Assembly (NCBI GenBank): GCA_902625415.1 | Contig: CACOBG010000007.1 | Span: 6,757 to 70,756 of the forward strand | Reading direction: 5' to 3' | Length of the DNA: 64,000 nucleotides | DNA from: an uncultured SAR86 cluster bacterium | GTDB lineage: Bacteria > Pseudomonadota > Gammaproteobacteria > Magnimaribacterales > AG-339-G14 | Translations under genes and position numbers: made by a program | Notes under the pieces: model-generated | The model's database searches: none | What the model saw: only the letters and a program-made list of their open reading frames with translations | Told to the model about the DNA's origin: nothing | Shown: one piece after another, positions 59,997 to 63,164 of the stretch | Layout: each line of letters begins with the position of its first letter | Position numbering within the stretch: the stretch's first letter is position 1

Positions 59997-61004
59997 TTAT
60001 TCCATAGTGATGGAAATTTTTCCGAAATGCTTATTGTCAATTTGATGTTGGAAGGCGTTTGCTAATTCAGATAAATCAAACGAATCGCTTATGACGGGCT
60101 TAATTTTAGAATTCTCTAAATAATCAACCATAGCTTTTTGTGATTGATGATTAGCCATAGCGATACCACTGGTTCTTACCTGTTTAAGAAAAATTCTTGG
60201 CAAAACTAATTCGTTAGCCGCAGGCCCACTCAATACTCCGATTAACGCAATATGGCCTCCAAGTTTCACTGCTCTAATTGATTCATTGAAGGTTTCTCCT
60301 CCGCCAACTTCAACAACATGGTCCACCCCTTCATTGTCAGTAACTTCCAGAACCTTTTCTCCCCATTTGGGATGCTCTTTATAATTGATAACTTCATCTG
60401 CACCAAGTTCCTTTAGCTTTTCAGCTTTCTCTTCTGAAGAAGTAGTAGCAATGACTCTGGCTCCCATTTCTTTTGCAAATTGTAAAGCGATAATTGAAAC
60501 ACCCCCAGTTCCCTGTACCAAGACCGATTGCCCTGACTCAAGCCTCCCTTCGTCAACCAAAGCACGCCAAGCAGTTAATCCAGCACAGGGCAGAGTAGCT
60601 GCTTCTTGCAAAGACCATTTGGAAGGCATTTTTGTGACTGCAGTTTCTTTGATTGCAATGTATTCAGTAGCATATCCATCTTGATTGTCACCAATGAAAC
60701 TGAGAAATTCGTATCGGGGTGGACCATCTATCCAATTAGGGAAGCAGGCACTCATTACTTGATCACCAACTTGCCAATTTTGCACAGCTGAACCTACTTC
60801 AGTAACTTCACCTGCAGCATCGCCGAGTAACACCCTCCCGTCGTCTGTGGGTATCAAACCCAATGCGCACATCAAATCATGATAATTGAGACTGCTTGCG
60901 TTTACTTTAATTAAAATTTCATCTTCTTTTGGTTGAGGAATATCTACTTCTGTAAGTTTAAATTTGTCCAATCCACCGGGTTTTTCAAGCTGCATTTGTC
61001 TCAT
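59997..61004 (-). CDS. NAD(P)-dependent alcohol-dehydrogenase-like MDR protein (Zn-independent type)
   Basis: SLNYHD, DAAGEV, LPCAGLTAW, GTGGVS, HFGKI. Confidence 0.88.
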   Translation of the reverse strand: MRQMQLEKPGGLDKFKLTEVDIPQPKEDEILIKVNASSLNYHDLMCALGLIPTDDGRVLLGDAAGEVTEVGSAVQNWQVGDQVMSACFPNWIDGPPRYEFLSFIGDNQDGYATEYIAIKETAVTKMPSKWSLQEAATLPCAGLTAWRALVDEGRLESGQSVLVQGTGGVSIIALQFAKEMGARVIATTSSEEKAEKLKELGADEVINYKEHPKWGEKVLEVTDNEGVDHVVEVGGGETFNESIRAVKLGGHIALIGVLSGPAANELVLPRIFLKQVRTSGIAMANHQSQKAMVDYLENSKIKPVISDSFDLSELANAFQHQIDNKHFGKISITME

Positions 61005-61247
61005 CTATGTCTCCTCACTTTTTTTGTTTTTATTAGAACAAAAAAGCGTTGGGAAATGAATGAAAATCCATAATTTAAAAAGAATAAAAAAATATTTTTT
61101 TATAACCTAAATGAAAAATCTTATAATTTTTTATGAAATTTTTGAAAAAACAAGGTCTCGTGTCTGGTAAAAAAGCCTTGAAGTACTATACTTTCAGCGT
61201 TTTTAGTCGTTTGTATTTTATTGAATCACTTAATTTTCAATAAAAGT

Positions 61248-61309
61248 GCAAAAAGTGGCATTTTTGCTATTTTTCAGTCAATTTTGTCCTCTTTTTACAG
61301 TTGTATAAT
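61248..61309 (+). promoter_or_regulatory. Putative promoter (-10 TATAAT 61304-09) with upstream inverted repeat GCAAAAA-N6-TTTTTGC
   Basis: Consensus -10, no good -35 at 17 bp; 7-bp perfect inverted repeat at 61248-61267. Confidence 0.4.
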
Positions 61310-61422
61310 GCTTTCGATTTTGAAAGGTTGCTTAGTAAAAGTTTTAATTCATTAAATGAACTTTTAAGAAAATTTGTTCTCTACTAAGTATCTAAATTAA
61401 CCATCAGCTTAAGGAGTTAGCG

Positions 61423-61515
61423 ATGATAAATAGAGTGGTTACTGGAACTTTAGGATTTGGTTTTTGCCTCTCTTTTATACTTTATCTAGGAGTGATAGGA
61501 ATTAATTTTTTCTAA
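61423..61515 (+). CDS. 30-aa hydrophobic peptide (not in ORF track)
   Basis: MINRVVTGTLGFGFCLSFILYLGVIGINFF; SD AAGGAG 6 nt upstream; followed by a strong terminator. Confidence 0.65.
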   Translation: MINRVVTGTLGFGFCLSFILYLGVIGINFF

Positions 61516-61552
61516 TCCTGTAAAGCAATAAATTTATAAAGTTCTCCCCCCT

Positions 61553-61585
61553 AATCCCCTCGTCGAGACGAGGGGATTTCTTTTT
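61553..61585 (+). terminator. Strong intrinsic terminator
   Basis: AATCCCCTCGT-CGAG-ACGAGGGGATT followed by TCTTTTT. Confidence 0.85.
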
Positions 61586-61609
61586 GAAAAACATTAATTT
61601 AGAGTGCTT

Positions 61610-61732
61610 ATGACTAAACAATGCGAAGAGTGTCAAAAAGATTTACTGTTTAGCTATTTTTTAAAACAAAGAGGCGGTTTCATCGATCTAAGGAAAGTCT
61701 GTCGATCTTGTGAAAGAAAGAATTTTTGTTAA
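61610..61732 (+). CDS. 40-aa CxxC...CxxC zinc-finger microprotein (not in ORF track)
   Basis: MTKQCEECQKDLLFSYFLKQRGGFIDLRKVCRSCERKNFC; weak SD. Confidence 0.55.
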   Translation: MTKQCEECQKDLLFSYFLKQRGGFIDLRKVCRSCERKNFC

Positions 61733-61736
61733 TTTT

Positions 61737-63164
61737 TTAAGAAGAACAAGAGATTTCTAATTTTTTACCCCATTCAGGCGGAGCATTTGCAAAATCATCA
61801 AATTCTGAGTTTTCTTCATAAGGATTTTTAAGCACCTTAAGTAAATCTTTTAATTTTGTGAAGTCTGACTTTTCTGCATCTTGAATGGCTTCTTGTGCTA
61901 AATAATTTCTTAAAACAAACTTTGGATTTGCTCGTGTCATCATTTTTGATCTATCCTCGGAAGAGGTTTTTTCAAAACTCAAACGGTGTTGATATTTTTC
62001 ATGCCAAGATTTACCTTCGTCATCTTCAAACAGAGAATCTTGTTCTTTTGCAAGGTTTCTGAAGGTCAAGGTATAGTCTTTTTTATTTTTTTGCATCCAA
62101 GAAAGAAACTCTTCAATCAATTTCAAATCGTCTGCTTGCTCAACCAGCAAACCTAATTTTCTTCTGAAAATTGCTGTAAGTTCATCATAAAAAAACCCCT
62201 CATAGGAATTTATTATTTCTTTGGTTCGTTCTATTTCAATATGATCTTTTAAAGCTGCAGCTAGTGCATGACAGTTCCAAAGACCTATTGAAGGTTGGTT
62301 ATTGAATGCGTAACGACCGCTGTGATCTGAATGATTACAGATAAAACCAGGGTTGTAATCATCCAAAAAGCCAAAAGGCCCAAAATCAAAAGTTTCTCCT
62401 AGGATAGACATGTTATCGGTATTCATTACACCATGGGCAAAACCGAAAGCTTGCCATTTGGCAATAAGTCTTGCCGTCGAAGAAACTATTTTCTCGAATA
62501 AATCGGTATAGCCAGCTTTGGATGCTCTTAACTCAGGAAAATAATTTTCAATGACATGATTCAGCAAAATTGGAATTAATTCTGATTTTTTATTATGCAT
62601 AAGATATTCAAAGTGCCCAAATCGAATATGAGTTTTTGCGACTCTTACCATCATTGCTCCAAATTCGGTCGTTTCCCTAAAGACCGGTTCATCGCTACCG
62701 ATCATGATTAAAGACCTCGAACTTGGAATGCCAAGATGATGCATGGCCTCGCTACACAAATATTCTCTGATCGTTGATCTTAAAACTGCGCGGCCATCTC
62801 CAAATCTTGAGTAGGGTGTTTTGCCAGCACCTTTTATGTGTAAATCCATTAAGCCGTCTTCGGTTTGTATTTGGCCCAGCAAAATTCCTCTACCATCTCC
62901 CAATTGGGGGACCCAAGAACCAAATTGATGTCCGGCGTAGGCCATTGATAGAGGCACACTGTGTTTAAAAGCTTTATTGCCATTTATGAAGGGCACCAAA
63001 TCTTCAGCATTAAGATCTTTAGGAAAGCCTAAAAGCTCTGCTAGCTCTTCATTAAAATGTATGAGTTTTGGGTTATCAAAAGGTGTCCAATTTTGCTTAT
63101 GAAATAAATCTTCCGGTAAATCGGCGAAAGGATTTGAAAATTTAAAGCCTTCTAGTTCCTGCAT
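61737..63164 (-). CDS. selO: Protein adenylyltransferase SelO (YdiU)
   Basis: YAGHQFG, QLGDGRG, KGAGKTPYSR, GVMNTDN, DFGPF, C-terminal SCSS. Confidence 0.95.
   Translation of the reverse strand: MQELEGFKFSNPFADLPEDLFHKQNWTPFDNPKLIHFNEELAELLGFPKDLNAEDLVPFINGNKAFKHSVPLSMAYAGHQFGSWVPQLGDGRGILLGQIQTEDGLMDLHIKGAGKTPYSRFGDGRAVLRSTIREYLCSEAMHHLGIPSSRSLIMIGSDEPVFRETTEFGAMMVRVAKTHIRFGHFEYLMHNKKSELIPILLNHVIENYFPELRASKAGYTDLFEKIVSSTARLIAKWQAFGFAHGVMNTDNMSILGETFDFGPFGFLDDYNPGFICNHSDHSGRYAFNNQPSIGLWNCHALAAALKDHIEIERTKEIINSYEGFFYDELTAIFRRKLGLLVEQADDLKLIEEFLSWMQKNKKDYTLTFRNLAKEQDSLFEDDEGKSWHEKYQHRLSFEKTSSEDRSKMMTRANPKFVLRNYLAQEAIQDAEKSDFTKLKDLLKVLKNPYEENSEFDDFANAPPEWGKKLEISCSS

Follow-up and report, generated by a model that had tools for sequence, protein, structure and literature searches.

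What does a self-contained transcription unit for a 30-residue hydrophobic peptide do in the streamlined genome of an uncultured SAR86 bacterium, a member of one of the most abundant heterotrophic groups of the surface ocean? The unit lies in a 64,000-nucleotide (nt) stretch of contig CACOBG010000007.1 (GenBank assembly GCA_902625415.1), the whole of which is called the window here, and a preliminary description made from its letters had offered a type I toxin, a dual-function small RNA or a small membrane regulator as readings. By comparison with related genomes, we find that its open reading frame (ORF) appears to define a new, unannotated family of small membrane proteins that extends through a whole SAR86 family, and that it is carried on a candidate dual-function RNA, in which a conserved run of cytosines (C-run) directly 5' of the terminator may pair with the ribosome-binding site (RBS) of a TonB-dependent receptor.

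A family-wide gene for a small, putative membrane peptide

The window's genus (g1) was compared with the other genera (g2-g4) of one SAR86-like family of four genera, within an order of four families, as also in PMC11582366. At the DNA level the unit region was present in 14 of 16 same-genus genomes with 71-91% identity, and a homologue search, one of the checks put forward with the preliminary description, found the peptide in all four genera: 40 of the 49 family genomes carry it (g1 13/16, g2 7/8, g3 13/16, g4 7/9), counts that include kin, as related genomes are not independent. The gene is single-copy in each genome, and two weak extra matches in g1 were antisense noise. In the other three SAR86 families the peptide search gave only matches with E above 0.05, and among 32 loci inspected 5' of homologues of the adjacent dehydrogenase gene (Porticoccaceae and others) the peptide was found only in four close SAR86-type loci. 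The earlier view of a self-contained unit encoding what is probably a single-helix membrane peptide is thereby upheld in part of the comparison and, further, by the coding evidence below.

The peptide reads MINRVVTGTLGFCFCLSFILYLGVIGINFF in g1, MNYTKALLGTLGYVLCLSTVVYVGSLGILTFAS in g2, MINFQVFTGSVGLAFCLGFLIYLGSLGLASFSLV in g3 and MNVYRAVIGTVGYVVCFSTLLYVGSLGILTFGA in g4. Residues M1, G8, G11, Y21, G23 and F30 are invariant in 20 aligned peptides, C15 and G26 are nearly so, and the sequence is hydrophobic from residue 5 to the C-terminus, as would suit insertion into the inner membrane as a single-pass helix. Variable columns in g1 are distributed 4/1/10 over the three codon positions, nine codons vary synonymously only, and in the 8 of 10 pairs that gave a value the Nei-Gojobori ratio of non-synonymous to synonymous divergence (dN/dS) lies at 0.05-0.5, both inside genera and between them. 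Because of this conservation, codon-position pattern and dN/dS, the ORF is, by every sequence measure applied, a real protein-coding gene under purifying selection as a protein. The gene is also present in RNA libraries, with part of the stretch contained in 17 runs from 12 studies.

No named family accounts for the peptide. The window's copy matched 0 Pfam and 0 NCBIfam families at E up to 10, a set of 20 homologues yielded one sub-threshold family match (MgtS-like, E 0.19), and a search of 1.84 billion representatives returned the peptide's own cluster alone. Look-alikes from the Atlas (YncL, PmrR and similar) were rejected, their scores of at most 0.84 being at chance level.

Nucleotide constraint and a conserved C-run

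Selection on the peptide does not account for all of the conservation within g1. Across 11 genomes, the 25 ORF codons whose amino acid is invariant differ by 0.092 at their third positions, compared with 0.349 over 275 codons of this kind in the adjacent gene of the same genomes, and 0 of 2000 resamples were as low as 0.092. The g1 ORF is therefore constrained beyond its coding function. Pairwise difference over the whole ORF is 0.056 in this genus, and that of the 3' untranslated region (UTR; 61516-61552) is 0.067.

The 3'UTR ends in the C-rich tract TTCTCCCCCC (61542-61551), which the preliminary description had pointed out. A C-run of 5-8 lies directly 5' of the terminator in all 37 of 37 peptide loci tabulated across the four genera. 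Its context is GUUCUCCCCCCUAA in g1, UUUCUUCUCCCCCCUAG in g2, GUUUCUUCUCCCCCCUUGAA in g4 and CAUUUCCCCCUAGA in g3, where UUCUCCCAA occurs in the terminator loop as well. The run is unpaired in the g1 consensus fold, and in g2-g4 its 3' cytosines have a probability of being unpaired, P(unpaired), above 0.9. Taken together, the tract looks to be a conserved functional element.

A candidate target at a TonB-dependent receptor

Target prediction, also proposed at the outset, was run with RNAduplex using a 21-nt motif against 1158 start regions of the window's own genome, based on crude longest-ORF gene calls. The top-ranked region (-20.1 kcal/mol; mean -5.6, standard deviation 3.1) belongs to a 1042-residue gene (G000:C1:263834) with TonB Plug and barrel domains, for which no equivalog-level name was found. 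Its 5'UTR reads ...UUAUCCAGGGGGGAUAACA-AUG, and it is the only one of the 1158 start regions with G6, while G5 occurs in five. The preliminary description had noted that TTCTCC is complementary to the GGAGAA RBS of several genes in the window; this is true but generic, and the G-run RBS elsewhere in the genome is the more specific partner.

Orthologues of this ~1040-residue receptor retain a run of G5-G7 at the RBS in all four genera, and the duplex reaches -16 kcal/mol or better in 28 of the 30 genomes that carry both elements. That the C-run is conserved, and that the receptor G-run is conserved, are facts of observation. The closest correspondence occurs in g3, where the motif AUUUCCCCCUAGA is an exact 13-nt complement of the receptor 5'UTR sequence UCUAGGGGGAAAU, and all 12 of the 12 receptor loci examined carry UCUAGGGGG(G)AAA(A/U). 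A search for this 13-mer with up to one mismatch in five g3 genomes recovered the receptor RBS in four, the fifth having G6/C6 variants; it also returned the motif itself, one conserved non-RBS site, a CoA-transferase RBS and three singletons, and a reversed-pattern control gave 0-1 matches per genome. In the g2 genome G020 the receptor is the only RBS-like site among all 10 GGGGGAGA sites; in G017 (first 10 of 17 such sites) and in G023 (first 10 of 29) one other site is RBS-like besides the receptor. Searches for RNA chaperones gave Hfq in 0 of 50 family genomes and ProQ in 0 of 1 genome searched, a result that fits a G/C-rich seed working free of a chaperone.

The reading that we favour, tentatively and without calling it probable, is a dual-function RNA: a peptide mRNA whose C-run pairs with the G5-G7 RBS of the ~1040-residue receptor. 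The gene would make a single-pass inner-membrane peptide of 30-34 residues, with a basic N-terminus and a helix bearing GxxG...C...YxGxxG small-residue packing faces, and its mRNA would act as a regulatory RNA as well. The pairing region would be the unpaired C-run UUCUCCCCCC, set between the coding/3'UTR domain and the terminator hairpin, which would base-pair with G-run ribosome-binding sites without Hfq; at the foremost of these, the receptor RBS, pairing would block translation initiation. The active species could be the whole ~270-nt mRNA, or else a 3' fragment of ~70 nt that shares the terminator. That the C-run pairs, that the receptor is its target, that the peptide enters the membrane and that peptide and receptor have any functional link are all inferred. 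If true, receptor expression in a streamlined genome without Hfq would have its first riboregulator, and the tuning of nutrient uptake a testable handle.

Two further observations concern family III CoA-transferases. One of them, L192 (G000:C3:39246-40382, minus strand), is the second-ranked predicted partner of the C-run in the window genome, at -19.5 kcal/mol, and in a g3 genome another (L126:1514-2737) has a one-mismatch match to the pattern at its RBS.

Controls and competing explanations

Several results count against the proposed pairing. Composition-preserving shuffles of the 21-nt motif reached -20.1 kcal/mol or better in 17 of 100 cases, so the receptor's first place among the 1158 start regions is not significant alone. 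Duplexes between motif and receptor of the same genus averaged little better than mismatched ones (-18.4 cognate vs -17.6 non-cognate; identity assignment 6/24), C-run length does not track the length of the target G-run within the window's genus, and beyond the complementarity of C-run and G-run nothing co-varies. Both exceptions among the 30 genomes (G002 and G003) have a best receptor match without a G-run, and in five g4 genomes the best match is a paralogue that lacks one. A GGGG RBS is found on 3 of 7 Plug-domain genes in the window genome, compared with 29 of all 1158 start regions, and on large TonB receptors at 10 of 15 loci (L151-L165) in the three SAR86 families where the peptide was not found; because it is common in those families, the receptor G-run may serve some other purpose. 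C-runs next to a hairpin also occur in the window genome 3' of three genes, for the ammonium transporter Amt, a 677-residue TonB receptor and an Hsp20-like protein; downstream of the proteorhodopsin gene there is a hairpin whose loop is UCUCCCCC; such ends on other genes would equally suit a general cis element. The scan that found the first three returned 0 G-run cases in 3'UTRs, and a genome-wide search for C-run hairpins that required a T tract returned only the peptide unit and the 3' end of Amt. The contigs assembled from RNA libraries carry no information on strand, level, true ends or a processed 3' fragment. Since the shuffle and cognate-genus controls weaken the claim, we treat the pairing as a hypothesis and not as a result; the dual-function or small-membrane-regulator alternative of the preliminary description has become the favoured reading, with its pairing part weakened.

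A strong contender, and quite conceivable, is that the transcript simply serves as the mRNA of a small membrane protein, for example one that modulates a complex of the inner membrane or is an accessory part of it, and that the C-run is a cis element without trans targets, serving for instance transcript stabilisation, termination efficiency or a weak pairing with its own Shine-Dalgarno (SD) sequence that tunes translation. The coding and conservation evidence fits this explanation equally well, as do the C-run and hairpin ends after Amt, the 677-residue receptor and the Hsp20-like gene, together with the hairpin loop after proteorhodopsin, and the shuffle and covariation controls back no specific target. 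CUCC of the motif pairs with the unit's own GGAG in 4 of 13 folds, but that pairing is just 4 bp long (GGAG/CUCC) and inconsistent across genera, and predicted sequestration of the SD, for which folding had been proposed as a check, was uneven, P(unpaired) of the SD ranging from 0.03 to 0.99 over 13 representatives. Nor is there a general excess of C5 runs in 3' regions of the window genome (7 C5 vs 10 G5), and an ordinary mRNA leaves unexplained both the exact 13-nt complement to the receptor RBS in g3 and the three-fold suppression of synonymous change in the ORF. Even so read, the unit would encode a membrane peptide, present family-wide, that lacks annotation and is usually overlooked by standard gene callers.

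The remaining explanations are far less credible. A leader peptide with an attenuator, governing read-through into the zinc-ribbon mini-gene downstream, would account for a short ORF followed 37 nt later by a strong terminator and then by a small ORF on the same strand, an arrangement in which the zinc-ribbon ORF is present in all four genera. We nevertheless think it very improbable: the peptide is conserved as a transmembrane helix and has no regulatory codon run, the consensus fold shows no alternative antiterminator pairing, peptide and terminator persist in 3 of 14 same-genus sequences whose downstream ORF has been replaced, and an Rfam Phe-leader match is noise (18 bits vs a gathering score of 55). 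A type I toxin of the Hok/TisB/Fst kind, that is, a peptide that forms pores and is restrained by an antisense RNA as well as by 5'-3' folding within its own mRNA, has a slimmer chance still. The unit does resemble such toxins (Hok, TisB, Fst, AapA1) in peptide size, hydrophobicity, structured mRNA and a C-rich 3' tract reminiscent of an anti-SD, it has a long leader in g1, and the glycine-rich helix faces could support oligomers. It departs from them in distribution, copy number, selection and antisense partner: there is one copy per genome, in fixed synteny through four genera, under strong purifying selection in streamlined 1.2-Mb genomes; the long leader is a peculiarity of g1, those of g2-g4 being only 30-50 nt; no minus-strand promoter-like site was seen in the sequence of 60900-61800; no Rfam toxin or antitoxin family was matched; and the 4-bp limit of the tract's pairing with the unit's own SD, with the uneven predicted accessibility of that SD, tells against it too. 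Being neither patchy nor multicopy, and with no antisense promoter seen, the unit lends the toxin reading of the preliminary description no support. Least credible is a purely non-coding small RNA in which the ORF is incidental. Nucleotide conservation in g1 is very high, synonymous sites and 3'UTR included, as such an RNA would require, but from genus to genus the nucleotides diverge (synonymous divergence, pS, 0.55-0.87) with no loss of the peptide or its length, of the SD or of the start codon.

A candidate C-run RNA in a sister family

In the three other SAR86 families a looser C-run pattern occurred no more often than its reversed-pattern control, but one of its matches led to a stand-alone small-RNA candidate in the sister family f4, at L169:1440-1570 (= G033:C1:52860-52990). 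It comprises a TTGATAT...TATTATAAT promoter, a 7-bp stem (GUCAGUC/GACUGAC) with the loop UCUCCUCUCCCCCAA, and a GGGGCUUCGGCCCC terminator, and no plausible ORF was found in it. DNA matches to this stand-alone hairpin RNA, with its UCUCCUCUCCCCC loop, are present in 29 of 30 f4 genomes. Because RNAs that expose a C-run recur in SAR86 in non-coding form, a trans-acting role of the C-run becomes more plausible.

A more speculative generalisation, which we consider rather unlikely, is that SAR86 bacteria, having no Hfq and hardly any regulators described so far, employ RNAs with a C-run as an 'anti-RBS code', free of any chaperone, that addresses their signature TonB-dependent receptors. The C-run would be carried on a membrane-peptide mRNA in one family, where the peptide may act on the same uptake pathway, and in the loop of a ~55-nt small RNA in the sister family, and the G-run RBSs, enriched on receptors throughout the order, would be the matching address.

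Relation to known RNAs and small proteins

Among dual-function RNAs, SgrS likewise has coding and pairing regions that do not overlap, as is the case for the ORF and the candidate seed of the SAR86 unit, and the enterobacterial examples are Hfq-dependent. Such RNAs that encode small proteins include SgrS/SgrT, AzuCR/AzuC, VcdRP/VcdP and Spot 42/SpfP (PMC8915982, PMC8672173, PMC8916003; reviewed in PMC12310071 and PMC12612679). As described in those papers, they resemble the SAR86 unit in measuring ~160-270 nt and in having their own promoter and terminator, a 15-43-residue peptide and a separate pairing region. There is no sequence relationship, and in the SAR86 unit pairing is only predicted, in a family whose genomes yielded no Hfq. 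The peptides differ as well, that of SAR86 being a predicted integral transmembrane helix whereas those of the known RNAs are amphipathic or soluble regulators.

Where the genome is AT-rich, G-rich ribosome-binding sites have their natural complement in an unpaired C-run; C-runs of this kind act without Hfq in the UCCC-motif small RNAs RsaE/RoxS of low-GC Firmicutes and in the UCCCC anti-SD of the Staphylococcus aureus icaR 3'UTR. The icaR motif sits in a 3'UTR, as it does in the SAR86 unit, although the phylum is different and there is no homology; it acts in cis on its own SD, whereas the own-SD match of the SAR86 unit is the short one described above. A further parallel is Yfr1 of Prochlorococcus and other cyanobacteria, in which an unpaired C/U-rich motif near stem-loops pairs with the RBS of som mRNAs and lowers their translation (PMC2796815). 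Both come from streamlined marine bacteria and join a conserved unpaired C-rich motif to the RBS of an outer-membrane protein, which in SAR86 is a candidate only. As characterised in that paper, Yfr1 is ~60 nt long and non-coding, whereas the SAR86 unit is coding; its motif, as the M2 mutant shows, contains UCCU and is not a run of C5-8; and its targets are porin-like and validated with reporters, whereas the SAR86 candidate is a TonB-dependent receptor proposed from sequence (PMC2796815).

As a protein, the peptide resembles small inner-membrane proteins of Gammaproteobacteria such as KdpF, CydX, MgtS and AcrZ: it has ~30 residues in a single predicted helix, and its small-residue packing motifs would suit binding to a larger membrane protein; it differs from them in having no family match and no partner gene in an operon. 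TonB-dependent transporters dominate the transporter pool of SAR86 in the account given in PMC11582366. The full-text literature searched yielded no account of small RNAs or small proteins from SAR86, and the terms 'Hfq', 'small RNA' and 'riboswitch' are absent from the text of the SAR86 isolate paper.

Architecture and transcripts

The elements listed in the preliminary description (the -10 hexamer TATAAT, the SD AAGGAG, the 30-codon ORF, the C-rich tract and the 11-bp terminator stem) are all present (Table 1). The promoter scan did not call the TATAAT at 61304-61309, because its -35 is poor; its conservation supports it as a putative -10, each of the four genera having TATAAT(G)C or TATCAT 5' of the ORF, at 37-121 nt before the ATG outside g1. 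Three elements persist from genus to genus: a -10 resembling TATAAT with (AT)GC after it, an SD with GGAG, and a C-run that abuts the G+C-rich hairpin of the terminator on its 5' side. The terminator stem AATCCCCTCGT/ACGAGGGGATT (61553-61578), G+C-rich and followed by TCTTTTT, is the sole terminator-like site across 60900-61800 (shuffle mean 0.2), and the consensus fold shows compensatory changes in two of its pairs, CG to UA, each in 2 of 13 sequences.

The g1 leader falls into two parts: the 3' part, with a pairwise difference of 0.076, matches the ORF in conservation, and the 5' part, at 0.286, is less conserved than any other segment of the unit. The dyads noted earlier, AAAAGTT (61338-61344) and AACTTTT (61361-61367) with an inner TTCAT-TAA-ATGAA, do exist and lie inside that least conserved segment. 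In the consensus fold the SD is placed in a hairpin loop and the AUG in a stem, in 13 of 13 sequences and invariantly. The fold of the whole unit is unexceptional (z -1.55), and an Rfam search of 60900-61800 at E up to 10 gave only noise, the top match being SscA on the minus strand (25.6 bits vs a gathering score of 60).

Contig cover was examined in 4 of 20 listed RNA-library runs, from 3 studies. Metatranscriptome contigs span 61213-61485, 61248-61550, 61380-61549, 61383-61551 and 61355-61548, together 61213-61551, with further cover at 60868-61109. Their shared end point within the C-run is probably a product of the run's length polymorphism. Two of them begin 5' of the -10 at 61304, at 61213 and 61248, so that the 5' end and the '110-nt leader' of the preliminary description are tentative; an upstream start, read-through or carried-over DNA are possible explanations. 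The zinc-ribbon ORF region (61593-61780) was without contig cover in the four runs, and the flanking genes were without it in X1, X3 and X7, neither of which is evidence of silence. In the oligo-dT run X5, a depth spike at 61076-61122 coincides with an A-rich tract and is probably not specific.

Locus and neighbouring features

The source genome measures 1.22 Mb in 25 contigs, with 34.8% G+C. Gene order (dehydrogenase, peptide, SelO) is the same in the window and in 7 of 7 loci checked from g2-g4, and the dehydrogenase gene has 73% identity to its homologue in Gamma proteobacterium SCGC AAA076-P13.

Table 1. Features of the peptide unit and its surroundings (window coordinates), with similar 3' ends elsewhere in the window genome
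Feature	Position	Strand	Remarks
Zn-dehydrogenase-like gene	59997-61004	-	Flanks the 730-bp intergenic region holding the unit
Conserved upstream blocks TTATTAGAACAAAAAAG; TTTTTTATAAC-17-TTATAAT; ACTATACTTT; GTGCAAAA	61028..61300	.	Invariant blocks in a long AT-rich intergenic stretch
-10 hexamer TATAAT (GTTGTATAATGC block)	61304..61309	+	Block nearly invariant in 14 same-genus sequences
5' leader	61310..61422	+	5' part (61313-61378) variable; 3' part (61379-61422; TTAACCATCAGC...AAGGAG...GCG) conserved
Shine-Dalgarno AAGGAG	61411..61416	+	6 nt 5' of ATG 61423; GGAG before the start codon in four genera
ORF, predicted 30-residue single-helix membrane peptide MINRVVTGTLGFGFCLSFILYLGVIGINFF	61423..61515 (including stop)	+	Conservation, dN/dS
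AU-rich 3'UTR segment TCCTGTAAAGCAATAAATTTATAAAG	61516..61541	+	Conserved within g1 like the ORF; not between genera
C-run motif TTCTCCCCCCT, candidate base-pairing seed	61542..61552	+	Kept in four genera
Intrinsic terminator	61553..61585	+	11-bp stem, 4-nt loop, T tract
Zinc-ribbon mini-ORF, 40 residues, basic, CxxC...CxxC	61610..61732	+	Directly after the terminator
SelO-like gene	61737-63164	-	Other flank of the 730-bp intergenic region
C-run/hairpin 3' ends	G000:C11:7201, C2:86256 (-), C14:891, C11:11511		Amt, 677-residue receptor, Hsp20-like and proteorhodopsin sites

The zinc-ribbon ORF may be part of the same small-gene locus as the peptide unit. Homologues 3' of the unit in the four genera include L036:1788-1922, with a GTG start, and those of G020, G061 and G019, while a copy in G009 has lost its cysteines. 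The ORF received no family name, weak sub-threshold matches alone being found in Pfam and NCBIfam, and it formed a single cluster in a search of 5.8 billion proteins. One same-genus genome repeats, ~1 kb from the first copy, part of the segment made up of 3'UTR, terminator and zinc-ribbon ORF (window 61504-61731; L013, G009:C3:66182-66409).

Upstream of the unit, the blocks within 61028-61300 have pairwise differences of 0.14-0.23, compared with 0.29 for the variable leader, and the GATAAC...GTGCAAA portion recurs in g4. The single call of the promoter scan, a promoter-like site at 61099-61127, falls inside this region, and the blocks are likely promoters or operators for the divergent dehydrogenase gene, an upstream start for the peptide unit, or both. 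The intergenic stretch itself is unusually long for a streamlined genome. In g3, a second conserved hydrophobic ORF of 33 residues (MDYETFQKLRNLLIMLFFTTGFSIGYFISQVII; L036:1685-1786) lies between the peptide unit and the zinc-ribbon ORF, and was seen in 3 of the 4 g3 loci inspected.

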